This document shows, piece by piece, positions 2,653 to 34,670 of a stretch of 64,000 bases of DNA. Each line of letters begins with the position of its first letter. Position 1 is the stretch's first letter. The notes beneath the pieces are model-generated. The model had not been told where the DNA came from, ran no database searches, and saw only the letters and a program-made list of their open reading frames with translations. Both the position numbers and the translations under genes were made by a program. This DNA comes from Alphaproteobacteria bacterium (GTDB lineage: Bacteria; Pseudomonadota; Alphaproteobacteria; Rickettsiales; UBA998): contig RDZH01000011.1 in assembly GCA_004293935.1 (NCBI GenBank), positions 13,831-77,830 of the forward strand. Reading direction: 5' to 3'.

Positions 2653-2760
2653 TGCATAAAGTTTCCACTTGTTGGATAGAATAAAATCTTTTTCTTTGCA
2701 TTGAGTTGATGAGGATGATATTAAGATGCATATCTGTGTTAAGTGGCGTGAGTAAAAAGA

Positions 2761-4851
2761 ATGAATGTAAACGGCAAAACAAAACAAGCATTACGTGCAA
2801 GTGTGATGACCCTAGCCCTCGTAGCAGGGTTTGATGCACATGCTCGCGGGTTACTTCCCGATCGTCCCAGCGTAGAAATTCGCCTCGAAGCATTGCAACA
2901 TTTACGTGCCACGGCGCAACCACAAGCTGCGCGACCATCGCGCCCCATCATGATAGCTCCGCACAACCGCACGCGTTTACGCCAAGCACCTGCGCGCCCT
3001 CCGATTATTCATGCTGAAGCTGCACCTGAGCCAACTCAAGAATCACCCGCATCAACCGTGAAGCCATCATTTGTGCCGCAATCAAGCCACAAAGTGAAGC
3101 CCCCTGCTCCACCTAAAAAAATCACAGCCAAGCCTAATACCAAGGCACTTATTAAAAAGGCTACACCAGAAAAACAACCGAAAAAAGAGATCACGCCCCC
3201 TAAACCCGTTGCGATAGAACCCGCCACACCTGCACCCGTCAAACAGCCTGTTAAACAGATTGTAGAGCCATCGCTTCCTACCCCTATAAGTCTGCCTAAG
3301 CCGATTATTCCTGTTGTCGTTGCGCCAGCTATCCCTGAGCCAACGCCTATCCCTGAGCCGATCCAAGAGCCAATCCAAGAGCCAACACCGCAACCGCCTG
3401 TGGTTGAGTCCGTTGATTCGTCATTGGCAACACCGCCTGAAGAACCAGAACATAAGGAAATTACCCTTCCTGAACCCACCGAACTTCCGCAAGAGCCAAT
3501 CAGCGATGAGCTGCCTGCTATGCCTGAAGATGCTCTGCCTGAACCTGAACTTGATGATGTCGATTTTGAAGAATTTGAACAAGAGCAAGAAGAAGTCGTC
3601 CCTTTAGTGGAAGAAGAACCAATAGAGGAACAACCCGCTATTGTTGCGCCTACCCCCAAAGAAAAACCGCCCCTCACGACGGATGAATCAGAGGCGACAG
3701 CCAAAGAACAAGCAGCTACGCCCGCAAAAGAACCAGAACAAAGCCCAGCTCCTCAAGGTGCTGAAGTCGATGAACTTGATGCACTCATGAAGGATATGAC
3801 CGATCCTGCCAATGAAACCCCTGAGTCCACAGCAATAGAACCTGCTCTCGATGACGAACCACTCATCGATGAAGTACCTGCATCTAATGACGCTACGCTC
3901 GCTCCCCTAGAGCCTGCTACTGAATCACCCAAAAAAGAAGGGATGTTCCCAAATATCCGCCGTGCCTTCACTTCCTTCTTCTCCGATGATGAGAAAGAAG
4001 TTGCAGCACCAGCATCTGAAGTACCCCCTCCTGCGAATGAGCCACCGACAAGCGAAATCCCTACGAGTGAAGTCCCTGCCCCAATGGAAGGTGAACCCGA
4101 AGATCCTATGATGGCAGCCCCCGTCGAAGAAGAGCTTGAATCAACAAACATTGACGCGATGCTTGCCGCCGAGCCAGAAAAAACCGATCCTAAAAAACCT
4201 GCAGAACAACCTAAAGAGGATGATTTACCAAACTTACCTGCATTTGAGCAAGGGTCTGAACTCGAAACAGGCTTACCGCCACTGCCTGAGTTTGAAGAAC
4301 AACAAAATTCTGCATCCCTTGATGCGATGGATAATGCGGATGCCGATTTACCGCCACTGCCTTTTGGTGAAGCGGATGAGCCGATTGCAGTGCCAACAGA
4401 ATCTGTTGATTCTGAGGAGCTTCCTGCTCTTGATGCACCTTCCGACACGCAAGCCAATAAAGAACCCGCTATTGAAATTGCATCCAAAACTGACGCTCTT
4501 GAATTACCTTCCGAAAAAGAACTAAGTTTAGATGCATCATCCGAACCGGTGCGTTTATCCATTCAATTTGCGCAAACAGAAACGGAAGTTCCTCTTTCAT
4601 TCCAACAAAAGCTGATTGATTTATCGCAAGATTTGATTGCTAATCCGAATCTCAAAATCAAAGTAGTGGCATATGCATCCGCGAATGAAGATCAAAAAAG
4701 TGTTGCGAACCGCATTGCTCTAGCGCGTTCTATTGCTGTACGAGGCTTCCTGATTGATTTGGGCATCAACAATGACCGCATTTCTGTTTTAGCCTTAGGC
4801 AATGACCGCTCTGGCAACAATCCTGAACGGGCGGATATTATTGTTGAATAG
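2761..4851 (+). CDS. Secreted Pro/Glu-rich low-complexity protein with degenerate OmpA-like C-terminal domain
   Basis: Signal-like N-terminus (ASVMTLALVAGFDAHA). About 550 aa of P/E/A/K-rich sequence with tandem IPEP/IQEP units. C-terminus KIKVVAYASANEDQKSVANRIALARSIAVRGFLIDLGINNDRISVLALGN resembles an OmpA_C peptidoglycan-binding fold. Confidence 0.6.
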   Translation: MNVNGKTKQALRASVMTLALVAGFDAHARGLLPDRPSVEIRLEALQHLRATAQPQAARPSRPIMIAPHNRTRLRQAPARPPIIHAEAAPEPTQESPASTVKPSFVPQSSHKVKPPAPPKKITAKPNTKALIKKATPEKQPKKEITPPKPVAIEPATPAPVKQPVKQIVEPSLPTPISLPKPIIPVVVAPAIPEPTPIPEPIQEPIQEPTPQPPVVESVDSSLATPPEEPEHKEITLPEPTELPQEPISDELPAMPEDALPEPELDDVDFEEFEQEQEEVVPLVEEEPIEEQPAIVAPTPKEKPPLTTDESEATAKEQAATPAKEPEQSPAPQGAEVDELDALMKDMTDPANETPESTAIEPALDDEPLIDEVPASNDATLAPLEPATESPKKEGMFPNIRRAFTSFFSDDEKEVAAPASEVPPPANEPPTSEIPTSEVPAPMEGEPEDPMMAAPVEEELESTNIDAMLAAEPEKTDPKKPAEQPKEDDLPNLPAFEQGSELETGLPPLPEFEEQQNSASLDAMDNADADLPPLPFGEADEPIAVPTESVDSEELPALDAPSDTQANKEPAIEIASKTDALELPSEKELSLDASSEPVRLSIQFAQTETEVPLSFQQKLIDLSQDLIANPNLKIKVVAYASANEDQKSVANRIALARSIAVRGFLIDLGINNDRISVLALGNDRSGNNPERADIIVE

Positions 4852-4928
4852 GAAAGTGGGTTCTATGATTCCGTGAATGTCATAAAAAATTCATACACAC
4901 ATTCTTTTATCTATGCTATTATCGCGTT

Positions 4929-5750
4929 ATGAGTAGCACAAAGACAAAAGTTTCATTTGGCAGTTCACCAAAAGCCAGTTCATCGGGCATATCCCATTCC
5001 CATAGCGATCGCGCTACGGGCAATGGTTTTGCTGGTTCAACATTACGAGGCACGAGCAAAGGTTATGCCGATCACTCAGACTCCAGTTTCCGCTCCAGTG
5101 GCTTTGGATCAGGTTCTCATGATGGCGAAGGAACGCGCAGTATGGGGCGTGGCTATGGCGCATCTAATTTGGGTTCATCATCCAAACAAAGCACTGCTTC
5201 CATTTCTTCGGGCAATAGAGGCTATTCTACCTCCTTTCCTTATAGCGATCTCTATTTCATGAGCAGCATGTTGGGGCAAAATAGTGAATTAAATTCCTTG
5301 CGTCAAGAACAAGCGATTAACAACGAATTGTCGCAATTAGAGCAAAAAAGGCAGTATCTGGAGCGTAGCTATCACCTCGATGCTCCGAATTATTATGAAT
5401 ATACGCAAGAACACCCCAAGCGCACGCCTAAAGCCGCATCTCTTCCTCTCATAGCTCTCGGAGCGATAGGCGGCGGGATAATGTCTGGTGCATTGATGCG
5501 ATCCTCTGATAGTCCCAGCATCCTCGCTTCTTCCGCCCTCCTAGGCGCAGTTGTTGGTGGGGCATTGATGAATGCTCTCACAGGTGAAAATTATTTGAAT
5601 GTGAGGCGCGAGCATGTGCAGGGCTATAAAAACTTGCTTGACACGATGGAAATCAAGGCGAAAAGCCAACCGCAAACAAAGGTGGATGAGACACAACCCA
5701 TAGGGCGCGTGATGGAATCTGAACAAGAAAAAAGCGTAGCTCTTACTTAA
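4929..5750 (+). CDS. Hypothetical Ser/Gly-rich protein with coiled-coil segment and two glycine-zipper-like TM helices
   Basis: Single long ORF. S/G-rich N-terminal 110 aa, then QEQAINNELSQLEQKRQYLE, then LPLIALGAIGGGIMSGALM and ALLGAVVGGALMNAL. No family recognised. Confidence 0.5.
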   Translation: MSSTKTKVSFGSSPKASSSGISHSHSDRATGNGFAGSTLRGTSKGYADHSDSSFRSSGFGSGSHDGEGTRSMGRGYGASNLGSSSKQSTASISSGNRGYSTSFPYSDLYFMSSMLGQNSELNSLRQEQAINNELSQLEQKRQYLERSYHLDAPNYYEYTQEHPKRTPKAASLPLIALGAIGGGIMSGALMRSSDSPSILASSALLGAVVGGALMNALTGENYLNVRREHVQGYKNLLDTMEIKAKSQPQTKVDETQPIGRVMESEQEKSVALT

Positions 5751-6822: not shown

Positions 6823-7584
6823 TTATGATGTATGCACAAACACCATCGTCTGTGCATTGGAATGCTGCGCGGCATAGGCATAGCCCATTGCTGCAAAATC
6901 TTTCATCTCTTCTGGGTGCGTTATCCCATGACGCACGATAAAATCCACCATAGCACCACGGGCTTTTTTTGCATGTACCCCTATGGTGACTAATTTATCC
7001 GCCTTCACATGACGAAAATCAACATCCACGATGGCTGGGATAAGATCACGGCGTTGGATCACACGGTTATATTCTTGCGAGGCAAGGTTGATGAGATGCT
7101 TTGCGCCCATCATCTTCGCATCGTCATTTAATGCATTGGTGACGCGCTTGCCCCAAAAATCATAAAGCGATGTGCCGTGAAGTTTTGTTCCCATCTCCAA
7201 ACGATAGGGATAAAGCCGATCAAGCGGGCGTATCATTCCATACAGCCCCGATAAGATGCGCACATGTTCTTGCATAAAAGCACGCTGCGTCCCATCATAA
7301 AGTTCGGGCGTTATCGCATCATAGACATCACCATCAAAACAAAAAATAGCGGGCTTACTATTGCTGGCATCAACATTGCTTGGAAACGCTGCATAGCGTT
7401 CCACATTGAGTTGCGCTAATTTAGGGCTAATATCCATAAGATCCGCCAATTCCGCCACCGACATTGCCTGTAATTGCTGCACCAACGGCGCACATTCCTT
7501 CCAAAAACGCGGGATAGTTGCCCCCACTTCTTCATGCATTGGGGTTTCATCCAGCGTTTTGGCAGGGGAAATGACAAGGAGCAT
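6823..7584 (-). CDS. yaaA: Peroxide stress protein YaaA (UPF0246/DUF328)
   Basis: MLLVISPAKTLD N-terminus is typical of YaaA. The ATG at 7584 removes the overlap with tolB; the track start at 7617 is probably an extension. Confidence 0.8.
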   Translation of the reverse strand: MLLVISPAKTLDETPMHEEVGATIPRFWKECAPLVQQLQAMSVAELADLMDISPKLAQLNVERYAAFPSNVDASNSKPAIFCFDGDVYDAITPELYDGTQRAFMQEHVRILSGLYGMIRPLDRLYPYRLEMGTKLHGTSLYDFWGKRVTNALNDDAKMMGAKHLINLASQEYNRVIQRRDLIPAIVDVDFRHVKADKLVTIGVHAKKARGAMVDFIVRHGITHPEEMKDFAAMGYAYAAQHSNAQTMVFVHTS

Positions 7585-7592
7585 AGACACCG

Positions 7593-8921
7593 CTACATCG
7601 GCAATAAGGGCGACCATGCAGGATCAGATGCTTCCATTGGTGTCACGGTACGGCGCACATTATGCCCTGTAATATCGACAGAATAAATCTGTTGACGCGA
7701 TCCACCAGAATCTTTGCGCCCAAACATCAACACACGCCCATTCGGAGCCCATGTTGGTCCTTCCACCAACCAACCAGCGGTAAGGGTGCGCTCTCCTGAA
7801 CCATCAGGCTTCATCACACCAATATGGAATTGCCCTCCTGTTTGCTTGGTAAAGGCAATCAGATCGCCACGAGGAGACCATACGGGGGTGGAATAATTAC
7901 CGCGCCCAAAGCTGATACGCTGCGCACCGCCACCCGCTGCACTCATCACATAGATTTGTTGTGATCCACCACGATCCGAGTTGAACACAATTTTTGAGCC
8001 ATCCGGGGAATAAGAAGGGGATGTATCAATCGCTGGCGTGCTTGTCAAACGACGTAATTGACGACTCCGTAAATCCATATCATAGATATTCGTAATACCA
8101 CCTTTCGCAATCGACATCACCATCCGTGTACCATTATGGTTGAAGCGCGGGGCAAACGACATGCCATCAAAACGCCCTAAAGATTCTTCACGTCCCGTTT
8201 GCAAATCTCGTAAGAATACACGCGGTATGCCACCCGCATACGACATATAGAGTATTTCTTGGCTGTTGGGTGAAAAGCGCGGGGTCAACACCAAATGACG
8301 ACCATCAGTTAAAAATTTATGATTCGCACCGTCTTGATCCATAATTGCCAAGCGTTTGATTTTACGCAACGGCGTTCCACTTTCCGCGACATACACCACA
8401 CGCGTATCAAAATAACCATCTTCTCCCGTGACGCGTTTATAAATCTCATCCGCAACAAGATGCGCAATGCGTCGCCAATTATCCACTGTACCGTCCAACT
8501 GACGACCTGTCAGTTGCGTTTCCGCTAATGTATCAAACAAACGGAAGCGCACACGCATTTTTCCAGACCCTGCCGCATCCACTTTAGCGATAAGCAAAAG
8601 CGAGCTATCAATCAGCTTCCAATCAGCATAACGTGGCATTTCGGTTGGATAACTAATCTGTTCAATATGCGCCCCCCGTGGGACAATTTTGAACAAGCCT
8701 GATCGCTCCAAATCCGCTGCAACCACCTGCGACATTTGCTCACCAATCCCCGCCAACGCACCATCCATGGAATGAAATTGCGGAATGGAAATCGGTGTAG
8801 GCTCATAGACTCCGCCACCAATGTAAATCTCTTGTGGCTGCGATTGCGCCTGCCCCATCCACGGAGTCATTATCGTCATTATTAGGGCAGCCACCCTCAC
8901 CGCATTGCGAACACGTATCAT
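7593..8921 (-). CDS. tolB: Tol-Pal system beta-propeller protein TolB
   Basis: Signal peptide. N-terminal TolB domain, then repeated propeller blades ([47 protein letters not shown]). Confidence 0.9.
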
Positions 8922-9120
8922 TATCTACTCACCTTAGAAATTATCTGAAAAATGGCATAAAACATAACGAATTTTTTTTCTTTTGGCAAGCATTGATATA
9001 ACCATTGCACAAAAATGCAATTTAGTTCTGTTCATATGCGATGAATCTTGCTATAAGGCTGTAGAATAACCTTGAACCTTCATATGGTCTGCATAGTAAC
9101 CTAAGGATGATAACACGCTT

Positions 9121-10557
9121 ATGGCTCATACAGCATCTGCACCAAACGCGCTGAGTTTTAGAGATAAATTTAAACCCGTCATGATTTCAGGCAAGGAAGT
9201 CTGGGGAATTGTTGAAGGAGGAAAAGGCATTGGCGCAACCAATGGCGCAACCGCAGGGGCATTTGCAGCAGCGGGTGCAGTGGGAACTTTTTCTGGTGTG
9301 AACCCTGAACATTATGATGAACATGGCACGGTGATTCCTTATGCCTACACAAGCACCACGCGCCGTGAACGTCATGAAGAATTGATTGCCATGAGTACGC
9401 AAGGAGCCGTGCAGCAAGCCCAACGTGCCTATGACATTGCAGGTGGCAATGGGCGCATCCATATGAATGTCTTATGGGAAATGGGGGGAGCAGAACGTAT
9501 TTTGGTTGCCACCCTCGAACAAACACGCGGTATGATTCATGGTATCACCTGTGGTGCAGGTATGCCCTATCGCTTAGGGGATATTGCAGCACATTTTGAA
9601 GTCTATTATCACCCGATTGTTTCTTCCGTGCGTGCCTTCCGTGCTTTATGGAAACGCTCTTATTCTAAAAATAAACAATGGCTCGGCGGCGTGGTTTATG
9701 AAGACCCATGGTTAGCAGGTGGGCATAATGGGCTATCTAATAGCGAAGATCCACTGTTACCACAAGACCCCTATCCTCGCGTGGCAGAGATTCGTAGCTT
9801 CATGAATGAAGTCGGCTTGCACCACGTCCCCATCATCATGGCAGGTGGCGCATGGCATTTGAGCGATTGGGAGCATTGGATTGATAATCCTGAAATTGGT
9901 GCTGTTGCCTTTCAATTCGGTACGCGCCCTTTGCTTACCAAAGAAAGTCCAATCTCCGATGCGTGGAAACGTCGTTTGCTCACGCTTAAAGAAGGTGATG
10001 TGTTCCTTAATCGCTTTAGCCCAACGGGGTTTTATTCCTCCGCCGTGAATAATGCGTTTATCCAAGAATTACGCGCCCGCAATGATCGTGAAGTGGCGTA
10101 TGCCACCGCACCCGATGAAGAAAAGACGCACAGCATCCCTTTTGGTCCTCGCAATCGTCCGATTTATATAAGCGCAGCAGATTATAGTCGCGCCCAAGAT
10201 TATATCGCCCAAGGCTATGATGAGTTGATGAAAACGCCTGATGATACCGTCATTTTTGTGACCAAAGAAAAAGCGTTAGAGATTCATCAAGATCAAGTCG
10301 ATTGCATGGGATGCCTCAGCCATTGTCGCTTTAGCAACTGGAAGGATCATGATGATTATACGACAGGGAAAAAAGCCGATCCGCGTAGCTTCTGCATTCA
10401 AAAATCACTGCAGAATATCGTAGGTGGTGGCGATGTCGAACAAAATCTGATGTTCTCTGGGCATAATGCGTTCAAATTCGCACAGGATGCATTCTATGAT
10501 CACGGCTTTATCCCGACGGTTTCAGAATTAGTCGAACGTATCCGCACGGGGTATTAG
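9121..10557 (+). CDS. NMO (nitronate monooxygenase / 2-nitropropane dioxygenase)-family FMN oxidoreductase, long form
   Basis: TIM-barrel NMO-like motifs GITCGAGMPY, PIIMAGGAWH, AVAFQFGTRPL. C-terminal extension with CMGCLSHC. Confidence 0.6.
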   Translation: MAHTASAPNALSFRDKFKPVMISGKEVWGIVEGGKGIGATNGATAGAFAAAGAVGTFSGVNPEHYDEHGTVIPYAYTSTTRRERHEELIAMSTQGAVQQAQRAYDIAGGNGRIHMNVLWEMGGAERILVATLEQTRGMIHGITCGAGMPYRLGDIAAHFEVYYHPIVSSVRAFRALWKRSYSKNKQWLGGVVYEDPWLAGGHNGLSNSEDPLLPQDPYPRVAEIRSFMNEVGLHHVPIIMAGGAWHLSDWEHWIDNPEIGAVAFQFGTRPLLTKESPISDAWKRRLLTLKEGDVFLNRFSPTGFYSSAVNNAFIQELRARNDREVAYATAPDEEKTHSIPFGPRNRPIYISAADYSRAQDYIAQGYDELMKTPDDTVIFVTKEKALEIHQDQVDCMGCLSHCRFSNWKDHDDYTTGKKADPRSFCIQKSLQNIVGGGDVEQNLMFSGHNAFKFAQDAFYDHGFIPTVSELVERIRTGY

Positions 10558-25624: not shown

Positions 25625-25699
25625 GCCGTTGTGGCTCAGTGGTAGAGCACGTCATTGGTAATGACGGGGTCGAGAGTTCGATTCTCTTCAGCGGCACCA
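25625..25699 (+). tRNA. tRNA-Thr (anticodon GGU), CCA encoded
   Basis: Manual fold: acceptor GCCGTTG/CAGCGGC, D arm GCTC..GAGC, anticodon stem CGTCA/TGACG with loop TTGGTAA, T arm GAGAG-TTCGATT-CTCTC, then ACCA. Confidence 0.9.
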
Positions 25700-25723: not shown

Positions 25724-26395
25724 TTATGATGCTGGGACGTGTATCGTGGCACGATGTTTTACCCAATAAAAGTGATATAAAATGGTTGCTTTCACTGCAC
25801 CACTAACACTCCCCATCAGAATTAATGGCCAGCCATTTTCTATACCGATAACGATGCCAAATAAAATATTCGCAATGTCCTTTAAGCAAAAGAGTAGCGT
25901 CATAGGAAAAGACAGCACGCCAACGCTTGCTTTTTGTCTGATTAATGTGATTTGATGCACACCTCCTTGCAACAACAAACAGGTTAAGCCCACGAGCATT
26001 AGTTGCGTAACCCCCTTCATGACAGGAGCAAAATCCAAGCGATAATAATAGGCTGCACTAGCAACTACAACAGAAAATAACAAACCCAAAATACTATTGT
26101 AGAATGTTTGTTTGCTACGCTCTAATGCAATCATATAAATAATAAATGCTGTTAGTACACATGCACCGAATCGTGTGAAAAACAAAAACAAATCAATCTC
26201 TTCTAATAAAAATGAATAGAGAAAAAACCCATAAAATGAAAAAAAGCTCGATAAAAACTGGTTCAATGATAATGCAACTGTGGCATGTGTGTTTCCAGCC
26301 CGTCTTTCTTTGAAAATACGTTTTATTTGGTCCGTTAATCCTCCCAAACACAACACGAATAATACTGAGCTTAGCAAACCAATAGCTTCATACAT
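25724..26395 (-). CDS. 7-TM membrane protein with two PQ-loop-like repeats (possible exporter)
   Basis: Seven hydrophobic segments. Two internally related segments (LTDQIKRIFKERRAGNTHATVALS; GGVHQITLIRQKASVGVLSFPM) resemble PQ-loop/SWEET-type repeats. ATG at 26395 is preferred over the track start at 26431, which overlaps a putative -10 box. Confidence 0.45.
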   Translation of the reverse strand: MYEAIGLLSSVLFVLCLGGLTDQIKRIFKERRAGNTHATVALSLNQFLSSFFSFYGFFLYSFLLEEIDLFLFFTRFGACVLTAFIIYMIALERSKQTFYNSILGLLFSVVVASAAYYYRLDFAPVMKGVTQLMLVGLTCLLLQGGVHQITLIRQKASVGVLSFPMTLLFCLKDIANILFGIVIGIENGWPLILMGSVSGAVKATILYHFYWVKHRATIHVPAS

Positions 26396-26427
26396 AAAAA
26401 ACTCTCTACACATGTCATGTACGTTAC

Positions 26428-26456
26428 ACATAAACTGACATTATTTGCTCTGTCAA
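26428..26456 (-). promoter_or_regulatory. Putative sigma-70-type promoter for the membrane-protein gene
   Basis: Minus strand TTGACA (26456-26451), 17 nt spacer, TTATGT (26433-26428). Pattern match only. Confidence 0.3.
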
Positions 26457-26560: not shown

Positions 26561-27664
26561 TTAGAACATCACGTCCATTTGCTTGCCTAAGCGTTCCGCA
26601 AAACTTTGTTGCTCGGATGAATACTCAAACAACGTTGGCAACGTTTCTGCATGACCGTGATATTCTGGCGGCATTACCACCAATGCATCTGATCCCCCCT
26701 GCCCTAATCCTGATAATGCCCGTGCCATCATCCCTGCAATATCCGTTCCCGCCATATCGTCAATATGCATAAATCCACCAGAGGGATTGATCTCTAAAAA
26801 CACCAATGTACCATCCTGATCTTCACGAAAATCCAATGCCCCATAGCGCAAACCAAGCGATTGCATGAGGGCGAGAATCTTGCGCTCCATGGATGCATCA
26901 AGAGTACATGCTTCAACTTTCGTGCGCACATCCATACGCACATCAAAAGGATATTCGGAGGTTCGCAAATCATAGCGTGCTGCCTGTATCTGATCATTAA
27001 TCACCGTCACACGATAATCATAATGCCCCGCTAGATAGCGTTGAAAGATGGTGGGACACAAATAGAGCGTATCTAATGCTGATGCCATCTCATCCTTCCA
27101 CAAACGCGTCGGTTGCCAATACATCGTATCCCCCATCCATGTGGTCGCCATTTTGAATATGGTGGCTGGGTCTTCTGAAACAAAAGTACGCGCATCATGC
27201 TCTGTTGAGGTGACGATACCTTCCGTGACGACTAAGCCCACTTCCTTTGCCTTGATTTTTTGAAATGCCCTGCGGCCTGCAGCATGCTGCGGATCGATGG
27301 GGTTATACCACTCAATGGCTTGGTTGCACTCTAATATGGCAAGCACAGACTCCCAAAATTGCGTAGTATCACGATGAATATAGCGGGTAACCGTAATATC
27401 ATTGATGCGTTGAAACGGGAAACTACCCGGCCTGCGCCACCAAATCGTCTGCACCTGATCAAAACAAACCTGTGTGCCGTCAAACATGGTGAGGATGACG
27501 CGTAAATCTTCAGTGATCGTTGCCGTATAATCAATGCCAAAGCGCGTATAATCACACAAAAACGGAATACTTGCTGCTGACATACGTTCCATAATGGGTT
27601 GGACATACACATCTTCCCATGTGGAAAAAATCAAGCATGTGGGGTAAAAAATTCGTGGCATCAT
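26561..27664 (-). CDS. ATP-grasp ligase, MvdC/MvdD (RiPP peptide maturase)-like, paralog 2
   Basis: N-terminal pre-domain PTCLIFST...VQTIWWRRPG. ATP-grasp core IFKMATT..., DYRVTVINDQIQAA, ALDFREDQDGTLVFLEINPSGGF. ATGATG directly follows the TAA of paralog 1, with AGGAG upstream. Confidence 0.6.
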   Translation of the reverse strand: MMPRIFYPTCLIFSTWEDVYVQPIMERMSAASIPFLCDYTRFGIDYTATITEDLRVILTMFDGTQVCFDQVQTIWWRRPGSFPFQRINDITVTRYIHRDTTQFWESVLAILECNQAIEWYNPIDPQHAAGRRAFQKIKAKEVGLVVTEGIVTSTEHDARTFVSEDPATIFKMATTWMGDTMYWQPTRLWKDEMASALDTLYLCPTIFQRYLAGHYDYRVTVINDQIQAARYDLRTSEYPFDVRMDVRTKVEACTLDASMERKILALMQSLGLRYGALDFREDQDGTLVFLEINPSGGFMHIDDMAGTDIAGMMARALSGLGQGGSDALVVMPPEYHGHAETLPTLFEYSSEQQSFAERLGKQMDVMF

Positions 27665-28756
27665 TTATCTCCTAATAACCTCAACATTGCCACCAACAGA
27701 TGCAGCAAAAGGCAGGCAGTTCGGGTCATAATCGAATCTATGCGCGTCATTGCGGATGGATGCATCATAATGCGCCTTGCCCCGATGAGTGGCAGAAAGT
27801 ACATCCGCCATAATCTGGGCTATATCAGAGCCTATATCTTGATCGACATACAGAAAACCACCTGACGGATTCACTTCAAGAAAGATCATCTCCCCATGGC
27901 GATTTTCACGAAAATCAAAGGCGGCATAGCGTAAGTGGGTGGCACGCATAAAAGCCTGTAGGGCGCGAATGGTTGCATCATCAATCGTGCATTGCTCCGC
28001 CTTCATGAAACGATCAATACGCACATCATACGGATAGCGGGATGATCCCGTATGGTACCGTGCAGCAATGACGTGATCATCAATCATCGTAATGCGATAA
28101 TCATAGACTCCATCAATATATTCCTGCACAATAATGGGGGCAACATAGAGCTTAGAAAGCTCATCAAGCATCTCATGCGTGAATTTTTTGGTCGGTTGCC
28201 AAAAAACATCATCACTGGAAAAAGTATGCTGTAGCTTGACGATGGCATCAGGATAATGCGCAATGAATGCTTCAACATCCACCTTTGAGGAGGTGATGAT
28301 CATCGGCACAGTCTTTAATCCAACATCACGGGCAATATGCTGCTGCACATATTTATTATCAATCGATCGTTCGTGATGTATATGATTATACTGGTAAATA
28401 TCGCGTTGATACATCAAGAATTCAAGCGCGTCCACCCAAAAACATACATGCTCCTTATAGACATATTTTGCGATCTCCAAACGAGAGAGCATATGATGAG
28501 GAAAGCCTTGCGGACGACGTATCCATACGGTGCTAAGCCGATCAAGATAGACTTCATCACCATCATAAAGTTGCAAGGTAATTATGCCATCATTTGTTAA
28601 ACTTGCGGTATAATCAACGCCATAGCGCGTATAGTCACAGATAAAGGGCATCGATGAGGACGACATATTTGCCACCACAGGCTCTATATGCCCATCAATT
28701 TTTTCTTCTCCCTTACGAACCGTGGATAAAATCAAGCATGTCGGATGGATTCTCAT
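27665..28756 (-). CDS. ATP-grasp ligase, MvdC/MvdD (RiPP peptide maturase)-like, paralog 1
   Basis: PTCLILST...LSTVWIRRPQG, AIVKLQHT, IVQEYIDGVYDYRITMIDDHVIAA, AFDFRENRHGEMIFLEVNPSGGF. Clearly paralogous to 26561-27664. Confidence 0.6.
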   Translation of the reverse strand: MRIHPTCLILSTVRKGEEKIDGHIEPVVANMSSSSMPFICDYTRYGVDYTASLTNDGIITLQLYDGDEVYLDRLSTVWIRRPQGFPHHMLSRLEIAKYVYKEHVCFWVDALEFLMYQRDIYQYNHIHHERSIDNKYVQQHIARDVGLKTVPMIITSSKVDVEAFIAHYPDAIVKLQHTFSSDDVFWQPTKKFTHEMLDELSKLYVAPIIVQEYIDGVYDYRITMIDDHVIAARYHTGSSRYPYDVRIDRFMKAEQCTIDDATIRALQAFMRATHLRYAAFDFRENRHGEMIFLEVNPSGGFLYVDQDIGSDIAQIMADVLSATHRGKAHYDASIRNDAHRFDYDPNCLPFAASVGGNVEVIRR

Positions 28757-28762
28757 AAGGCT

Positions 28763-28996
28763 CTACTTTTGCTCAGGTGTGATGGTAGTAATATCCGCCG
28801 TGGCGCGCACATAATAGGCGTTATAGGTGCGCCCCTCTCGACGCTTTGGTTCAAGGGGCAGTATGACATGAAGCTCCGTCTTAGGAAAACACAGCAAAGT
28901 TTTATCATATTGTTCCACATGCATGGTATCCGCATGTTCATCATCACAATAGCCGCGCACAACGCGCATATTTTCTTGGGGATGTATTTCAGTCAT
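28763..28996 (-). CDS. 77-aa ORF, candidate RiPP precursor peptide (or small accessory protein)
   Basis: ATGA overlap with the oxygenase stop. GAGGAA lies 9 nt upstream. Ends 6 nt before ATP-grasp 1. C-terminus GRTYNAYYVRATADITTITPEQK is rich in Thr/Asp/Glu/Lys. Confidence 0.5.
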   Translation of the reverse strand: MTEIHPQENMRVVRGYCDDEHADTMHVEQYDKTLLCFPKTELHVILPLEPKRREGRTYNAYYVRATADITTITPEQK

Positions 28997-29817
28997 GTGG
29001 GGCGTTCCTCATTGGTGAATTTTATTAAACAACTAAAGCGTTCCTGCTGTGCTGCATCGGTCACTACGCGATGTATGGGAACATGAATCGGCATCTCATG
29101 AGGCTCAGCCCATTCTCTCAAGGCAGCACCAAAATGTAGGAAAAAGCACTGTTGCGGAAAATGCAGATGGTAATATTCGCCTTGTGCATTCATAAACTGC
29201 AAAGCATTTTTACCAGAAATCACAGGGATCGTTAAGGTAATGCCCCACAAATCAATATGAGGTTTCATACGCATAAAATGGTTCTCTACTGGCTGTGCGC
29301 CTGCAATTTGCGTTCCCTCATGCACAGGATAATAATAATTATATTCCAAAAAATAATGCGATACATCAAAGTTGGATAATAGTCTTTGCGGAGGAAGTTG
29401 ATAGATATTCTCTAACATCGCAACCACGGTGCGCGTGCAATCGGTGAAGATGCGTACTGCCTCTGCTAGTTGCATACATAGAGAGCCTGAATCCTGTTCA
29501 TGCCCCACAATCTTTGTCCCCCCCCCCAAAAACATAAAGCGCAAAATATGGGAATAGGAATTATTATGGACGAATACATACCCCCCCTTATGGAGTGAAA
29601 AATCATCCAGAACATGCTTATGATGATCATAGAGTTCTTTAGGGTTATGACGCACAATAGGCACTGCCATTGACTGCAAAAGGTGCAATGCCCGAGCAAG
29701 AGGCGCGTCATCTGCTTCCACCATGAGCGCGCCATAGGTTTGGGCGTGATGCTTCACGATGGGAAGCATGTCTGCATCATCTGCCGATAAACGAGAATAA
29801 GGTATGATGTGTTCCAT
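28993..29817 (-). CDS. 2-oxoglutarate/Fe(II)-dependent oxygenase
   Basis: Facial triad and co-substrate motifs in the canonical order: KPHIDLWGITLT (HxD), ALQF, FFLHFGAALREW, IHRVV (distal His), ERFSCLIKF (RxS). Confidence 0.7.
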   Translation of the reverse strand: MEHIIPYSRLSADDADMLPIVKHHAQTYGALMVEADDAPLARALHLLQSMAVPIVRHNPKELYDHHKHVLDDFSLHKGGYVFVHNNSYSHILRFMFLGGGTKIVGHEQDSGSLCMQLAEAVRIFTDCTRTVVAMLENIYQLPPQRLLSNFDVSHYFLEYNYYYPVHEGTQIAGAQPVENHFMRMKPHIDLWGITLTIPVISGKNALQFMNAQGEYYHLHFPQQCFFLHFGAALREWAEPHEMPIHVPIHRVVTDAAQQERFSCLIKFTNEERPT

Positions 29818-29919: not shown

Positions 29920-30142
29920 AAACTATCAAAACTTAACATCATGAAATATACAGAGAATGACTCTATACTTAGTATTTACTTAAGTAATTATTATTTTTTT
30001 ATTAGTAAAACGGCAAAATAATGCACTTTTTCCCAAAACTGTAATAAATTAGTCATAATTGTTTGGTATATTTATTTTAACGGGGAAGAAAAAACATCCG
30101 TTTCAAACAACAACAAACAACAACAAATAATGGAGAGTAATT

Positions 30143-30364
30143 ATGGCTGGAAGAACAAGTGATGGACAAGGCGGTCAAACTTGCAAACAAGGTGACAAAA
30201 AATGTTACGATGATTTATTTTCAGAAAAAGATGGAAAAGAAGCACCGGGCGTGGCGTTCGCCGCTGCAGTGCAAGGAGTTGCACCTGTTTCTCCGCATGA
30301 TTCACCGACTGCACCATCTGTTCCAAGTGCGGGCAAAGGCAAGGATCAAGGCATGAGCGTATAA
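30143..30364 (+). CDS. 73-aa small protein (alternative precursor-peptide candidate)
   Basis: GGAGAG lies 7 nt upstream of the ATG and is preceded by (CAAACAACAA)x2. A 17-bp hairpin follows. Sequence is rich in G/K/D/S/T/P/A. No family recognised. Confidence 0.45.
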   Translation: MAGRTSDGQGGQTCKQGDKKCYDDLFSEKDGKEAPGVAFAAAVQGVAPVSPHDSPTAPSVPSAGKGKDQGMSV

Positions 30365-30383
30365 GTTCACGCACTCTAACTAT

Positions 30384-30424
30384 CCACGCAATGATAAGAT
30401 AGGAGTCATCTTGTCATTGCGTGG
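30384..30424 (+). terminator. Strong stem-loop downstream of the 73-aa ORF (no U-tract)
   Basis: CCACGCAATGATAAGAT-aggagtc-ATCTTGTCATTGCGTGG. 17-bp stem with one G-U pair, 20 nt after the stop codon. Followed by AAGTGCG, so not a canonical intrinsic terminator. Confidence 0.35.
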
Positions 30425-30745
30425 AAGTGCGTTCATAGAACGCCCATTCAATAATGAAACGTACCACTGCCTAAATTGAAAATCATAGGCAGTTGAGCGA
30501 AGCATATGCCACCTTATAGTTTAGAACAACGGCAAGGTAATAACCATGCTTCATCTCAACCACGTGGAAATTTACCAGATTTATGCATACAGCGATAATT
30601 GGATTATTGCTTCGGGCAAATAGCTTTGCGCCTTGGCAGGCATCATAGCGTGATAAGCAGATAAATTGCACGCAACCGCGATGATGGGCGTATCATGCGG
30701 ATCAAGCGCACCATGATGCTACATCACGCCCAATATACGCAAGTT

Positions 30746-30789
30746 CTCGCACGCGTGACATAATAATCTCGCGCATGTGACATAATAAA
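30746..30789. repeat. Tandem 22-nt direct repeat
   Basis: CTCGCACGCGTGACATAATAAT / CTCGCGCATGTGACATAATAAA, adjacent copies, 115 nt from the 3' end of tRNA-Ser. Confidence 0.7.
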
Positions 30790-30903
30790 TGAGTCGTTGA
30801 CTCCTATATCCATCACCCGCACGCACCAACCATCACATTTTTTGTAGGTTGATTGTGGGTGGAATTAAGATATATACAAAATCACATAGTTAATTGCGCT
30901 AAT

Positions 30904-30993
<90 letters not shown>

Positions 30994-31159
30994 AAATAAA
31001 ACACGCTACGAATATCCGTGCGTTCAGCGTCAAACGGTATTAGTGTTATACCCATTTTTCATGAAATGTAAAGTATAATTTTGATGTTTGGTTGATGATT
31101 TCACATTATGAGGATGTGAGGCGCACCCACGCTTTATCATGACACCTATCTGATCGCAC

Positions 31160-31188
31160 AAAACCTAAGCATGTTATGCTTAGGTTTT
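31160..31188 (-). terminator. Bidirectional rho-independent-type terminator
   Basis: Perfect palindrome AAAACCTAAGCAT-gtt-ATGCTTAGGTTTT, with the stem followed by a T run on either strand. Lies 52 nt downstream of the 31240-31995 gene. Confidence 0.55.
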
Positions 31189-31239
31189 CATGCTTAGTAT
31201 GATAACCACTGTATCATCAGCACATCAGGATTGGATGTT

Positions 31240-31995
31240 CTAACGTACAGCAGCCACTTCTTGAGTGCGCGCTTGCACTGGACCATGATACTGATTCGTA
31301 CCTTGTTCTGTTTTTTCTTTAGGGATGAGTGCTTTAGCAGTCAAATAAACAGCAGCCCCAGCAGCAAGCGATCCCGCAACAACCATTGCTTGTTTTCCGC
31401 CACCCAACCCTTTGAATTCATTCAAAGCGTTAGATGAAAATTTACCTATAGAGTTTTTTGCGTTCGTGAAGGCTTCACCAAAATTAAATCCACCCTTGGT
31501 AGTTTCTGTTCCAGCTTCAGTTACTTTTGCAGTCCCTTCTGGCACAACTTCTGCAGCTTTTTCAACGAATTGCTTAGCATTTTCTACAAGTTTTCCAAGT
31601 GCATCTTGGGCATTCTTTGCATTATTTTTAGCATCATCAGACAAACTTTCAGTAGCTTTTCCAAAATTTTTAACTATTTCTTCAGCCGCTTTTTTAAATT
31701 CTTCAGGAGAAGCCTTAGTATTTTTTTTAAGTTCTTCAAGTGCAGCTTTGGCAGCTTTGACCCCTTCTGCAGCACTTTCTGGCAAACCTGCAGCAGCTTT
31801 TCCAAATTCTTCAACTGCGCCGTTAACAAGATCTCCAAAATTATGAACAACTTCTGTAGCGGTTTCAGCAGCTTTTTTCAACATATTGATCAAACCAACC
31901 CCCGTACCAGCCGCTGCTGCAATACCAGTGGTAGCGGATGCCGCTTCTCTAACGAACGTTGTTTTTTCTTTTGGCTTAGATACGGTAGTCACCAT
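31240..31995 (-). CDS. Hypothetical Ala/Lys/Glu-rich helical-repeat protein with C-terminal TM anchor
   Basis: GAGGAG lies 9 nt upstream. Repeated amphipathic units (EEFGKAAAGL, VKNFGKATESL, AKQFVEKAAEV, IGKFSSNAL). C-terminal MVVAGSLAAGAAVYLTA. Terminator downstream. Confidence 0.6.
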   Translation of the reverse strand: MVTTVSKPKEKTTFVREAASATTGIAAAAGTGVGLINMLKKAAETATEVVHNFGDLVNGAVEEFGKAAAGLPESAAEGVKAAKAALEELKKNTKASPEEFKKAAEEIVKNFGKATESLSDDAKNNAKNAQDALGKLVENAKQFVEKAAEVVPEGTAKVTEAGTETTKGGFNFGEAFTNAKNSIGKFSSNALNEFKGLGGGKQAMVVAGSLAAGAAVYLTAKALIPKEKTEQGTNQYHGPVQARTQEVAAVR

Positions 31996-32046
31996 AATAC
32001 ATAACTCCTCATTTATGTTCTTGAATTGTAACTTACGCTAGTTTTG

Positions 32047-32469
32047 TTACATCTTTATGACAGAATTACATAAAAAATGCAAAAAAGGACGATCAGCGGG
32101 TGGCATATCCAAAAAAGCCAATTCTTCAAGGGTGTGCCACGCCATCTTCTGCCCCTCATTGGGATGTGGATCACCCTGCCAATGGGTGCATAGATAAAGA
32201 AGAAGGAGCAAAGGTTGCGTTGTGCCATCGGGGCGCAGAAGCTGGTCTGTATTAAAAGTGAGTGGCGTGCAATCATCGGGATGCACGATCAGATTCAACT
32301 CCTCAGCTAATTCACGGCACAATGCCACATCGGGTGCTTCCCCTGCCTCAATCTTCCCTCCCGGAAATTCCCACAACCCCGCCATCGAAGAACCTTCGGG
32401 TCGTTGCTGTACAAGAAATTGTTTGGTCACTCTATTATATAAAGCGGCAGCGGTAACTAAGATCATCAT
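32047..32469 (-). CDS. mutT: NUDIX hydrolase, MutT-like (8-oxo-dGTP diphosphatase)
   Basis: Nudix box GLWEFPGGKIEAGEAPDVALCRELAEELNL. Confidence 0.85.
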   Translation of the reverse strand: MMILVTAAALYNRVTKQFLVQQRPEGSSMAGLWEFPGGKIEAGEAPDVALCRELAEELNLIVHPDDCTPLTFNTDQLLRPDGTTQPLLLLLYLCTHWQGDPHPNEGQKMAWHTLEELAFLDMPPADRPFLHFLCNSVIKM

Positions 32470-32639
32470 ACATACTTATAGCATAGCACGTGGGTGCGCA
32501 CAACACTTTCAACACCATCTATTGCATCGAAGGTTTTTTCAAAAAAACCATGATATTGTGGCGCAATGTCATAAAAACGTCATAAATATTTGCTAGAGTG
32601 TGAGTTACATAAGTTCATCATATCCTATGAGGCACTCTC

Positions 32640-33260
32640 ATGATTGGCCATCTGATTCAACCAATCTTTCAAGCAGTAACCATCGCAGCGATTGCTTTTC
32701 CGGGCGTTGACTGGATTACAGAATCCATCCTTGAAGGATTTGATGCCGTTGGCACGACGGAAGTCGTCTCTAAAACGATTGAGGCAATGCCTGAAGGATC
32801 GGGCAAGGCTACCGCTTCTATTGCCTTTGGTATTGAACAACTGAATGAAAAATTTGCAGAACTCGCCGCTGCAACAGGCAACGCAATCAACCTAGATGCA
32901 TTGACAAATGCCGATAAACCCCTCACCGCTGCACATTTTACCGAAAATTTCGGGATCATCCCTAAAACATTGCAGGGAATAGCAACGGCTGCACCGGGAA
33001 TTGCCCAAACAGCATTAGCTGAAGAAAATAGAGCCGTCCTGCTCACTGGTATTGGAGTAGGAGGCATAGGTATAGCAATGTCTCCTCCTGCAAGCAAAGA
33101 ACTGAATGTGACGATTACATCGGGAGCGCAACAAGCCATGCAGCTTGCTCGCACTGCCACGGATTCCGCACGTCAAGGCTTAGCATCTGCAAGCAGTTTT
33201 GCACAGCGCATCACCGAACAACGCGCCGAAGCATCCCCTGATGTGGCGCGTGGTGCTTAA
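32640..33260 (+). CDS. Hypothetical Ala/Gly/Thr-rich protein
   Basis: GAGG lies 8 nt upstream. Strong terminator downstream on the same strand. Hydrophobic stretch LLTGIGVGGIGIAM. The antisense ORF 32669-33160 is rejected. Confidence 0.5.
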   Translation: MIGHLIQPIFQAVTIAAIAFPGVDWITESILEGFDAVGTTEVVSKTIEAMPEGSGKATASIAFGIEQLNEKFAELAAATGNAINLDALTNADKPLTAAHFTENFGIIPKTLQGIATAAPGIAQTALAEENRAVLLTGIGVGGIGIAMSPPASKELNVTITSGAQQAMQLARTATDSARQGLASASSFAQRITEQRAEASPDVARGA

Positions 33261-33443: not shown

Positions 33444-34670
33444 TCATATCGCGCATAATGCATCTGGCAGTTGAATCCGTAATCCCCCTTGTAACATTCC
33501 CCGCAAACGCGCATTGTGCATCCAACCAAGATGATGCACCATCGAAAGTAAGGTGGTAGGGTCGGATAAATGATCCATAAAGCGGGCAATGGATTGCACC
33601 ACACGTATTTGCGCTTCTTGGGGTGGTAGTGTGCCATCGGGATAATGCATCATCAAACACATCAAACCAAGGCGCGTAATCGCATAACGCACGGCAATCA
33701 AGTTCAGACGTTCACGCGCATTGCTTCCATGCCCTGCATAAGGAAAAAGCTGCACCGAATATTGCATCGCACACCAGCGTTTGAGCATCGGTTGCAACGC
33801 CTGATTGCCATAACGCTCCCACCTATCATATAAGTTCGCATAGGATGCACTACTTTGTTCACTAATCATGATGCTTAGCTGCTGTGCATCAAAATGTACG
33901 GCAAGGGCAGAATACATATCCATTAGCGTATGATCTAATCGAGGACGCGAGGTTGGCTTGGATAATGCGATCAACACGCACAACATATTCAGCAAATTAA
34001 AGGCATCACTTGGTTGTACCTCCGGCTGCGGCACGCGCCCCGATGCAGTTCTCAAATAGAAAGGCAGTGCCTCAATCCAATCCGTCATAGCAATCGATGC
34101 CAACGCATCCGCGCTGATAGCACTATGCATCAATGCATCTTCTGCCGTCAGATCCTCGCGTAGCATATAATCGATAAAGATGCGATGCACGGCATAGGCT
34201 TGCTGAGTATCGAGTGACTCAGGCAAGTAGTCTTTCAAACCATAGGGAACGCGTTGTTCGCGTGCATCCCCAAGCGCGACGGGATTCTCATGCCATAACG
34301 CCAAACGTACTACTTCTGGGCATGAAAGCGAGGCACTCATCACCACATCGTCCCCTAAGGAACGCGTAGAACGGGGAAAAAAATTGCACGCATCCCCAAG
34401 GAAATCCGTCCCATAGGCGCGATGAATACCACACCATCCCGCTTCTAATTTTACGCAATGATCCGTCTGTGCATCTCTGCGCATAATATGCTGCGCTTCT
34501 CCTGATGTAATCGCATCAAGCAATTCGGGGGCATGGGTGCGATAACGCTCCACGGTTTCCGCCGTAAGCTGCATACCCCACCCTTTACAGCACGTATCTT
34601 CACAGGCAGAACCCAAACACTCAAATTGCTCAAGTGCTGCAATCGATCGCAATGTGCGCATCGCTAACAT
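33444..34670 (-). CDS. fliB: Flagellin lysine-N-methylase FliB-like protein
   Basis: N-terminal Cys cluster FECLGSACEDTCCKGWGMQL matches the Salmonella FliB N-terminus (SCSGSAC..HCCKGW). Similar length (408 aa). Adjacent to flagellar genes. Confidence 0.65.
   Translation of the reverse strand: MLAMRTLRSIAALEQFECLGSACEDTCCKGWGMQLTAETVERYRTHAPELLDAITSGEAQHIMRRDAQTDHCVKLEAGWCGIHRAYGTDFLGDACNFFPRSTRSLGDDVVMSASLSCPEVVRLALWHENPVALGDAREQRVPYGLKDYLPESLDTQQAYAVHRIFIDYMLREDLTAEDALMHSAISADALASIAMTDWIEALPFYLRTASGRVPQPEVQPSDAFNLLNMLCVLIALSKPTSRPRLDHTLMDMYSALAVHFDAQQLSIMISEQSSASYANLYDRWERYGNQALQPMLKRWCAMQYSVQLFPYAGHGSNARERLNLIAVRYAITRLGLMCLMMHYPDGTLPPQEAQIRVVQSIARFMDHLSDPTTLLSMVHHLGWMHNARLRGMLQGGLRIQLPDALCAI

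Follow-up and report, generated by a model that had tools for sequence, protein, structure and literature searches.

What do two graspetide-type ligases modify when the precursor-like protein encoded directly beside them consists of a leader domain only? The question is raised by a four-gene operon in a 64-kb stretch of contig RDZH01000011.1, which belongs to an alphaproteobacterial metagenome-assembled genome (MAG). Throughout, the window denotes this full stretch, L numbers denote loci fetched for comparison, and P numbers denote ligase representatives. Read from the list of open reading frames (ORFs) and the sequence, the operon comprises:

28993-29817, minus strand: a divergent Fe(II)/2-oxoglutarate (2OG) oxygenase of 274 amino acids (aa), with a fold like that of IPNS, DAOCS and the plant 2OG-dependent dioxygenases
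28763-28996, minus strand: a protein of 77 aa whose homology to the clade's precursors covers their N-terminal (leader) domain and not their core
27665-28756, minus strand: graspetide-type ATP-grasp ligase 1, 363 aa
26561-27664, minus strand: graspetide-type ATP-grasp ligase 2, 367 aa (366 aa if the second ATG is the start)

We find that the operon is a very rare graspetide-type system, whose leader protein unusually lacks a core and whose oxygenase is of a rare lineage. Graspetides, which are macrocyclic peptides, form a fast-growing class of natural products. In the interpretation that we favor, and hold tentatively, the 77-aa protein would be a free-standing leader or partner module, and the residues to be cross-linked would lie on another polypeptide.

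An earlier note on this DNA had described four tightly packed genes here, and the ORF list agrees with their coordinates. The stop codon of the oxygenase gene and the start codon of the 77-aa ORF overlap as ATGA, six nucleotides (nt; AGCCTT) separate the 77-aa ORF from ligase 1, and the TAA of ligase 1 directly abuts the ATGATG of ligase 2, with AGGAG upstream, all as the note had it; the GAGGAA before the 77-aa ORF lies 8 nt upstream, not 9. For comparison, we used a related strain of ~95% nucleotide identity (L169; Logan SRR7244341) and a distant metagenomic locus (L004). Between the window and L169, the substitutions at codon positions 1/2/3 number 4/5/30 in the oxygenase gene, 2/1/16 in the 77-aa ORF, 9/6/41 in ligase 1 and 10/5/41 in ligase 2. 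At the distance of L004, synonymous sites have reached saturation and the 77-aa ORF is still open, with a ratio of nonsynonymous to synonymous change (pN/pS) of 0.46-0.48, close to those of the oxygenase (0.39) and the ligase (0.42). Judged by these substitution patterns, the four operon genes are real and under purifying selection, not chance ORFs. L004 keeps the order oxygenase, small ORF, ligase at ~53-57% identity, and its junctions are tight (one has a gap of 4 nt, the other an overlap of 4 nt). In place of the 6 nt before ligase 1, L169 has a hairpin-forming insert of 89 nt (10235-10323), which makes this junction strain-specific. This insert is AT-rich and contains an ~16-bp inverted repeat (RNA fold z = -5.3), and 29 nt of it are found again at L169 8475-8503. 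Either a small mobile repeat is possible, or a hairpin within the operon like those that follow precursor genes in some operons that encode RiPPs (peptides synthesized by ribosomes and modified post-translationally). The G+C content of the operon (0.42-0.44) is slightly below that of most of the window (0.45-0.51).

The two ligases are clear paralogs, as the note had recognized (37% identity over 366 aa, E 3e-98), and carry the motifs PTCLI[LF]ST, [VI]W[IW]RRP, DYR[IV]T[MV]I, [AF/AL]DFRE and FLE[VI]NPSGGF. Among NCBIfam models, ligase 1 scores 123.9 bits with TIGR04187 (the 'ATP-grasp ribosomal peptide maturase' model), 90.5 with MvdC, 87.4 with MvdD and 47.6 with RimK_fam. The corresponding scores of ligase 2 are 129.2, 89.7, 86.5 and 46.8 bits, its residues 11-317 spanning positions 3-311 of the 312 in the TIGR04187 model. 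Expressed as E-values, the pair reaches 2e-37 and 7e-36 with TIGR04187, ~1e-12 with rimK_fam and 6e-6 or worse with glut_syn. The Pfam RimK ATP-grasp domain is also found in both above its gathering score (E 2e-10 in ligase 1 and 2e-6 in ligase 2). When a profile of the pair was searched against the PDB, the six best matches were all graspetide ligases (9bou, MdnB 5ig8, CdnC 7mgv, AMdnB 7m4s, MdnC 5ig9 and PsnB 7drm; E 8e-20 to 4e-12), followed by RimK enzymes at E 2e-5. Ligase 2 aligns with 9bou, an 'MvdD-like pre-ATP grasp domain-containing protein', over residues 9-329, so that the alignment begins at residue 9, and with PsnB over residues 11-317. Both ligases thus fall in the graspetide maturase superfamily, because their best scores are with graspetide models and structures and not with RimK, GshB or dipeptide ligases, the contrast that the note had singled out for profile searches.

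Catalytic residues are retained. The nucleotide- and Mg-binding residues K174, Q211, D281, E294 and N296 are conserved in both paralogs and across the clade; in ligase 1, the equivalents of R80, R221, D244-V-R246, D281, E294 and N296 are conserved. Functionally important residues of PsnB, namely Arg72, Arg213 and a D(F/W)R loop, are conserved among graspetide ligases according to the study of that enzyme. In the alignment with 7drm, PsnB Arg213 is matched by the Arg of DYR[IV]T and the DFR loop by DVR[IM]D, a Val variant found throughout the clade. Arg72 corresponds approximately to the first Arg of W-x-R-R, at the level of the motif only because HMMER placed a 2-residue gap there. From these comparisons, both ligases are best described as paralogous graspetide-type macrocyclases of a divergent branch outside the curated models. 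The ligases of this clade also have a C-terminal extension of ~30-40 aa past the ATP-grasp core (in the window, for example, 27665-27790 and 26561-26690), in which one Pro, mostly part of a P-F/L pair, is almost invariant and the C-terminus frequently reads ...H-[IL]-x.

The note had called the pair MvdC/MvdD-like. This is apt for the superfamily and does not extend to orthology: scores of ~90 bits, set against cut-offs of 425 and 475, indicate that the ligases are not orthologs of MvdC or MvdD. In our tree, the window pair groups together and with P0006, inside a clade whose precursors are of another type, and so the duplication is independent of the one that gave microviridin MdnB and MdnC and lies in another clade. 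The two systems are alike in having two paralogous ATP-grasp ligases per operon, in their superfamily, in the W-x-R-R motif and probably in the N-terminal pre-domain. In microviridin biosynthesis one paralog (MvdC) makes the esters and the other (MvdD) the amide. Among the window ORFs there is no TxKYPSD-like core (microviridin has a core of the TxKYPSDWEEY type), nor did we see a helical leader of the PFFARFL type in the window, where the leader domain is predicted to be all-beta (a low-confidence model).

The closest relatives of these ligases are few. An exhaustive HMMER scan of 1.84 billion representatives returned 8125 relatives, only about 18 of them close and full-length (E 1e-86 to 1e-50), after which scores fall to the general graspetide background. 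A profile of this clade, applied to the fetched loci, gives its members at least 386 bits and all others at most 309. Scans of genomes and metagenomes with the same profile found mostly generic graspetide loci, and a word-indexed homolog search with ligase 1 found essentially the query lineage only.

What most of the loci from other clade members have is a recognizable precursor. It lies directly upstream of the ligase, with leader and core together, in L086/87, L088, L007, L091, L092/93, L170 and L008, the last of which has a ligase that branches beside clade members P0023 and P0025; L006 and L089 are clade members without a recognizable precursor upstream. These sister precursors are 96-137 aa long and begin with a conserved N-terminal domain of ~75 aa (VV.EGY ... 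RLFL..DAEIT), predicted to be beta-rich, and continue with one to three K[WY]xDDGGTxxKSxDD-type cores (examples are SILKWIDDGGTLSKSKDDT, TIYKYLDDGGTISKSRDDE, TDFKYADDGGTVPKSFDET, TYPKYYDDDGYSPLKSYDD and TVFKYYDDSGCVSKSRDDG). No Pfam or NCBIfam model matches the family, and the parts covered of two graspetide census supplements hold no relevant match to the core motif; the family may still be cataloged in them.

These cores closely resemble units of CorA, the corallotide precursor. In corallotide biosynthesis (Corallococcus, graspetide group 15), the TIGR04187-type synthetase CorB makes Lys-Asp isopeptides, and the divergent 2OG oxygenase CorC then hydroxylates the cross-linked Lys at C-delta, helped by its partner CorD (PMC13097080). 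The verified Lys-Asp isopeptide units of CorA are DDGVIVKIVADDP and DGGGLVKVMDDP (DGGxLVKVMDD and KIVADD). Because of this resemblance, the products of the parent clade are probably small Lys-Asp lactam rings. With a ~75-aa beta-rich leader and repeats of the form K[WY]xDDGGTxxKSxDD, the clade has the look of an isopeptide family akin to that of corallotide, spread across several phyla. The K-aromatic-x-DDGGT core type reaches beyond the clade studied here, because six LKF[LRIFQ]DDGGT-like repeats occur in L135 (2-607, plus strand), in an incomplete ORF that lies upstream of a ligase of the next-nearest group. Two of the sister loci have island-like surroundings, which suggests that the parent family is mobile and possibly conflict-related. 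In L086, two paralogous ORFs of 68-69 aa (MPNSDLLPSLL..., 5131-5337 and 8995-9204) flank the precursor-ligase pair, with a TIR-domain protein and a DUF2971 protein nearby (7477-8286); in L088, a phage-type integrase gene lies just upstream (2055-3281).

The 77-aa ORF of the window belongs with these precursors in its first domain and in no other part. It is conserved beside homologous ligases, as the note's reading called for, with an 80-aa homolog in L004 (55% identity, E 4e-30) and relatives in the sister loci: a profile that includes it retrieves the upstream genes of L007, L091, L092/93 and L008 (E 8e-11 to 5e-6) and, marginally, L090 (E 0.011). In the alignment, the window and L004 proteins consist of the N-terminal domain only, and the others run on into a linker and cores; the L170 precursor independently confirms this architecture of domain plus core. 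The idea of an ordinary precursor in the window is therefore not borne out, since the 77-aa ORF matches only the leader domain and no precursor adjoins the ligases that has both a leader and a core with Thr/Ser/Lys donors and Asp/Glu acceptors. Nor is its tail, by these comparisons, likely to be a core of another kind. The window protein ends in ...ADITTITPEQK and its L004 homolog in ...AEIQYVDSVKEMGDPS (…KEMGDPS), and no Thr, Ser, Lys or acidic residue of the tail keeps its position between the window, L169 and L004 (T70, for instance, is Val in L169). A single-sequence AlphaFold2 (AF2) model of the protein is poor (predicted local distance difference test score, pLDDT, 58); it is all-beta, with seven strands and a disordered tail (68-77).

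Both sister branches of the window ligases (P0007/L086 and P0009/L170) carry canonical precursors. Because of this, the simplest history is that a canonical precursor lost its core and that the leader domain was kept under selection, and we consider descent from such a precursor probable. A lost core also invites the view that the whole cluster is a remnant on its way to pseudogenization. Besides the missing core, a G10 homopolymer in the oxygenase gene and an 11-nt frameshifting deletion in a repeat gene of L005 would fit such decay, which is nevertheless extremely improbable: all four genes are under strong purifying selection, both between strains and across saturated divergence, and the catalytic residues of both ligases and of the oxygenase are intact.

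The 77-aa protein could also be the substrate in cis, a small cross-linked protein that the oxygenase then hydroxylates. Its gene stands immediately upstream of the ligases, where the sister loci have their precursors, and is co-conserved with them in L004 and L169; the window and L004 proteins share charged and hydroxyl-rich patches (EQYDK[TS] and PLEPxRRxGxTY) that the sister leader domains do not have; and a promiscuous graspetide synthetase that cyclizes proteins is reported in PMC12291112. Candidate residues would be the conserved T24, E28, D31 and K32, or the tail TITPEQK. We nonetheless judge this unlikely, as the protein has neither a K-x3-D or K-x2-D unit nor the core motif of the clade, its tail differs between the window and L004 and varies at T70 in the close strain, and the conserved patches lie in predicted beta-strands (a low-confidence model). 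The favored reading is still that of a leader domain whose substrate would lie on another polypeptide.

The oxygenase gives a second view of the system. Its PHID, IHRVV and RFS motifs are present as the note had listed them, and H187, D189, H249 and R260 are invariant in all three known homologs (Ser262 is Asn in L005). Sequence models barely detect it: PF03171 matches are sub-threshold in the window (E 0.077, 13.8 bits) and in L004 (E 0.0096, 16.7 bits; gathering cut-off 23), and no NCBIfam model matches. The weak matches of a PDB profile search are all 2OG oxygenases, aligned through NYYPP / PHxD / LQ / HRVV / RxS, with the metal-binding triad on that of the plant and DAOCS enzymes. An AF2 model (predicted TM-score 0.69, mean pLDDT 64, loops poor) was compared with the PDB by Foldseek, and all of the top 50 hits were 2OG oxygenases (probability 1.00, E 5e-7 to 1e-5, TM-score 0.4-0.55), among them SO_2589, T7H, HSL1, GA2ox3, TraH, IPNS, ACC oxidase, ANS and T6ODM. 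Profile and modeled fold together indicate an IPNS/DAOCS-like Fe(II)/2OG oxygenase, built as a double-stranded beta-helix with a DIOX_N-like N-terminal part, and not one of the PF13640 class to which CorC belongs. In two word-indexed searches of 5.8 billion clusters, the enzyme occurred in three only, namely the window lineage, L004 (53% identity) and L005 (31%), and it is absent from the other 160 ligase loci that we examined. The ligases that adjoin it (both window ligases and, in L005, P0006) group together in 98/100 neighbor-joining bootstraps, and the association of oxygenase and ligase therefore arose once. Within the oxygenase gene, a G10 run (C10 on the plus strand; 29518-29527) encodes Gly-Gly-Gly and exceeds every other G/C run in the window in length. 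Both L169 and the variant L002 have it interrupted, and it may mark either a place of slipped-strand mispairing (phase variation) or no more than a hotspot of sequencing errors. A shorter run, G7, is at 29581-29587.

This class of oxygenase brings in another possibility, that the 77-aa protein is a carrier or scaffold to which the ligases attach an amino acid or small molecule, that the oxygenase tailors the attached group, and that the product is a small molecule. Analogs are the LysW/LysX amino-group carrier systems and the scaffold-peptide ('pearlin') pathways. The absence of a core motif, the capacity of two ligases for successive ligations, a weak similarity of the ligases to LysX/RimK (E ~2e-5) and the small-molecule substrates of most characterized enzymes in the IPNS/DAOCS/ACC-oxidase-like class would all be in line with it. 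However, the C-terminus is not conserved (…PEQK in the window, …KEMGDPS in L004), unlike that of carriers with an invariant acceptor; the ligases are far nearer to macrocyclases than to LysX or RimK and keep the core-recognizing Arg residues; and the sister loci are canonical RiPP loci. We consider a carrier function quite improbable, and continue with a leader domain that serves peptide macrocyclization.

The note had not known of graspetide ligases combined with a 2OG oxygenase as a described class. The claim of an undescribed class fails because this combination has already been characterized twice, in corallotide (PMC13097080) and in the SmaO/SmaX system of graspetide group 18, where the Fe(II)/2OG oxygenase SmaO carries out Asp beta-hydroxylation of the precursor (PMC12186529). 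Corallotide is the closer comparison. Like the window, it joins a TIGR04187-like synthetase to a divergent 2OG-Fe(II) oxygenase limited to that type of cluster; as in the parent clade, a long N-terminal region of the precursor precedes Asp-rich motifs for Lys-Asp rings, which are short and repeated; and, as in our reading of the window, a protein partner is involved. By contrast, CorC is a PF13640 (P4H-like) enzyme and the window oxygenase is PF03171/IPNS-like; the window has two ligases instead of one and no CorD of the beta-lactamase fold; the ~200-aa corallotide precursor has five KxxxD repeats, whereas the window has a core-less leader-domain protein and no repeat precursor; and the hosts are Corallococcus and an alphaproteobacterial MAG, respectively. 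In line with this, neither PF13640 nor PF00144 matches the operon genes or the four neighboring ORFs scanned. At the level of motifs only, a likeness to corallotide is seen in KKCYDD of a neighboring 73-aa ORF and in KFMKDD, present three to four times in L005. No Corallococcus locus was among the 80 best genome matches, a comparison that did not include CorB itself.

The SmaO/SmaX cluster resembles the window as a graspetide-type cluster with an Fe(II)/2OG oxygenase; SmaO, however, works with the HD-domain protein SmaX on a precursor with a GG leader, alongside a PCAT exporter, none of which is present in the window. Partner-protein-dependent graspetide synthetases are established, with rosaritide MirB/MirC and CorD as examples (PMC13097080). 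MirB/MirC parallels our reading in that a separate small protein is needed for ligase activity, and differs in that MirC is a homolog of PpiC-type isomerases, whereas the 77-aa protein is a precursor-derived domain. Fuscimiditide precursors with the leader C-terminal to the core (PMC13003496) show that the leader can be moved with respect to the core; these, however, are engineered. The operon thus falls outside both the MvdC/MvdD and the corallotide groups. Within the graspetide-ligase superfamily it is a divergent member, one that has no adjacent leader-plus-core precursor in canonical form.

How would such a system work? That the graspetide-type ligases and the 2OG oxygenase act on a peptide or protein is likely. 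Each ligase would use ATP to phosphorylate an Asp or Glu side chain, giving an acyl-phosphate, and the ring would close onto the side chain of Lys (an isopeptide) or of Thr or Ser (an ester). Hydroxylation of the peptide by the oxygenase would follow, in the manner of CorC, which acts on the cross-linked Lys in corallotide. The 77-aa protein, no longer a substrate, would bind the leader-binding domain of the ligases, and for such an action in trans we see a chance that is somewhat below even. The residues to be cross-linked would then reside on another polypeptide, for which the only nearby candidate, weakly assigned, is the 73-aa ORF. In its fullest form this amounts to a natural split precursor, in which the 77-aa leader protein activates both macrocyclases in trans on a separate substrate with hypervariable segments (the 73-aa ORF or the product of an unlinked gene) and the IPNS-like oxygenase, of a family not seen before, tailors the product; we regard this as possible and on the whole doubtful.

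The candidate substrate gene is divergent from the operon and has two conspicuous neighbors:

30143-30364, plus strand: a divergent 73-aa ORF, annotated as hypothetical protein TAF77156.1; from the annotation and strain comparison, a weak candidate for the core-bearing substrate
30365-30441, plus strand: a very stable hairpin directly after the stop codon of the 73-aa ORF, found by RNA folding; likely a terminator or stabilizer
30046-30145, no strand assigned: intergenic DNA that separates the operon from the 73-aa ORF and is 99% conserved in the comparison with L169

The 73-aa ORF has a strong GGAGAG Shine-Dalgarno sequence 5 nt upstream. In L169 (8615-8836) it has the same 222 nt, with no stop codon or indel and with 61 nucleotide differences, distributed as 18/21/22 over the codon positions. 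Identity varies sharply along the protein, with 22/24 residues shared in aa 1-24, 4/23 in 25-47, 12/12 in 48-59, 2/9 in 60-68 and 4/5 in 69-73, a mosaic that looks like diversifying selection or cassette exchange. By these signs the ORF, which the note had also mentioned, is a real, unusually evolving gene; a significant similarity to any precursor is not found. The conserved N-terminal block contains KKCYDD (K-x3-D-D), which resembles KIVADD of CorA and KFMKDD of L005. Two further likenesses were tried and dropped, a shared T-x4-D-K-x3-D-D core with the L005 peptide (alignment shuffles p 0.15-0.19, ungapped identity 0.33) and a likeness to the clade cores (shuffle p 0.4-0.9). On balance, the 73-aa ORF would be a rather unlikely substrate. 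The hairpin after it has a minimum free energy of -38.8 kcal/mol (z = -7.2; 0/200 shuffles fold as well) and was not called by the terminator scan because it has no U-tract; the promoter and terminator consensus scan as a whole was at chance level. The intergenic stretch is identical to L169 at 99/100 nt, which exceeds all nearby coding regions (~95% for the coding genes and 56-72% for the middle of the 73-aa ORF). It is unstructured (z = -1.1), shows (CAA)n-like repeats ahead of the Shine-Dalgarno sequence, and matches no Rfam family, the scan of the upstream region having matched only a tRNA.

The equivalent position is occupied in L005, another 'Alphaproteobacteria bacterium' MAG, by a repeat peptide gene. 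This locus has one ligase, followed by the oxygenase, and divergently upstream of the pair a peptide gene (4747-5200, minus strand) built of tandem units of MTKPERDKFMKDDRAQGEG. There are three intact units and a truncated one, each with KFMKDD. The gene is split into two ORFs because repeat 3 has a deletion of 11 nt, whether by a real frameshift or by a fault of the assembly. Repeat cores are typical of multi-core graspetide precursors. The L005 ligase has VWLHYVV where the window has VWWRRP, the WWRRP being otherwise nearly universal.

Several of our findings weigh against a leader domain that acts in trans on a separate peptide. Both ligases miss the curated cut-offs of TIGR04187, TIGR04184, TIGR04185 and TIGR04192 (129/124 against 350 bits, ~90 against 425, ~87 against 475 and 52/41 against 230), and PF21068, the MvdD pre-domain, is not detected in either at E <= 0.01, whereas it matches 8/20 clade members (best E 4e-8). 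The core motif of the clade is absent from the entire 64-kb window. Within the 73-aa ORF, K-x3-DD has a shuffle p of only ~0.05 given its K/D-rich composition (the motif occurs in 2/624 small ORFs of the window), a core at this place would be N-terminal, which is unusual, and similarity to the L005 repeat peptide or to the clade cores is not significant (shuffle p 0.15-0.9, ungapped identity p 0.33). The 77-aa protein is not obligatory for the sub-clade, because L005 has the oxygenase and one ligase without a homolog of it. IPNS/DAOCS-like oxygenases mostly act on small molecules, and neither a protease nor an exporter adjoins the operon. Finally, we know of no natural graspetide system with a separately encoded (trans) leader domain; to our knowledge, every characterized graspetide has leader and core on one polypeptide, and trans or repositioned leaders are products of engineering.

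Some of these same points would be expected if no peptide natural product were made at all, the target of the enzymes being a metabolite or some unlinked protein of the cell, with the small ORFs as incidental neighbors. Scores below every curated graspetide cut-off, the lack of a protease or exporter nearby and the clade members L006 and L089, with no recognizable precursor upstream, all agree with this. Yet the 77-aa ORF is homologous to domains of bona fide precursors and is translationally coupled to its neighbors, and the order of oxygenase, small ORF and ligase persists in L004 at ~53-57% identity, which together make incidental ORFs very improbable. A free-standing leader or partner module remains our favored, and still tentative, reading of the 77-aa protein.

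The operon lies between tRNA-Thr (25625-25699, plus strand) and tRNA-Ser-UGA (30904-30993, minus strand). The flanks hold heme biosynthesis genes, miaA, genes for a Nudix protein and a phasin/apolipoprotein-like protein, and flagellar genes; no integrase gene is adjacent, and PADLOC matches the operon genes to no defense system. A 235-aa membrane protein encoded downstream (25724-26431) was considered as an exporter and rejected, its PQ-loop similarity being sub-threshold and the gene not conserved in L005. The 251-aa phasin/apolipoprotein-like protein (31240-31995, minus strand; L169 6949-7710) is a mosaic like the 73-aa ORF, with ~39 N-terminal and ~60 C-terminal residues conserved and an Ala/Glu/Lys-rich middle that is rewritten, with a 2-residue length difference. 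Nucleotide identity to L169 is ~85% over ~30,535-33,241 (the phasin-like and Nudix genes and their flanks) and ~82% over ~29,920-30,437 (the 73-aa ORF and its flanks), compared with ~95% elsewhere. Farther along, a 408-aa protein (33444-34670, minus strand) matches the flagellin lysine-N-methylase FliB (NF038110, E 4e-39, above the cut-off), and in L169 the FliW, flagellin and FlgK genes adjoin the FliB homolog.

What distinguishes the system is an IPNS-like and not P4H-like oxygenase, an independent ligase pair, an alphaproteobacterial host and, above all, a precursor reduced to its leader domain. The chemistry of the oxygenase could differ from that of CorC and SmaO, because it belongs to a rare lineage of a fold class not yet linked to graspetides. 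To RiPP specialists the operon may be of interest mainly as a possible natural split-leader system. If the 77-aa protein is indeed a free-standing leader, the operon would show how RiPP recognition modules can uncouple from their substrates, would offer engineers a trans-activating part ready for use, and might account for further 'orphan' ATP-grasp loci that lack a findable precursor.

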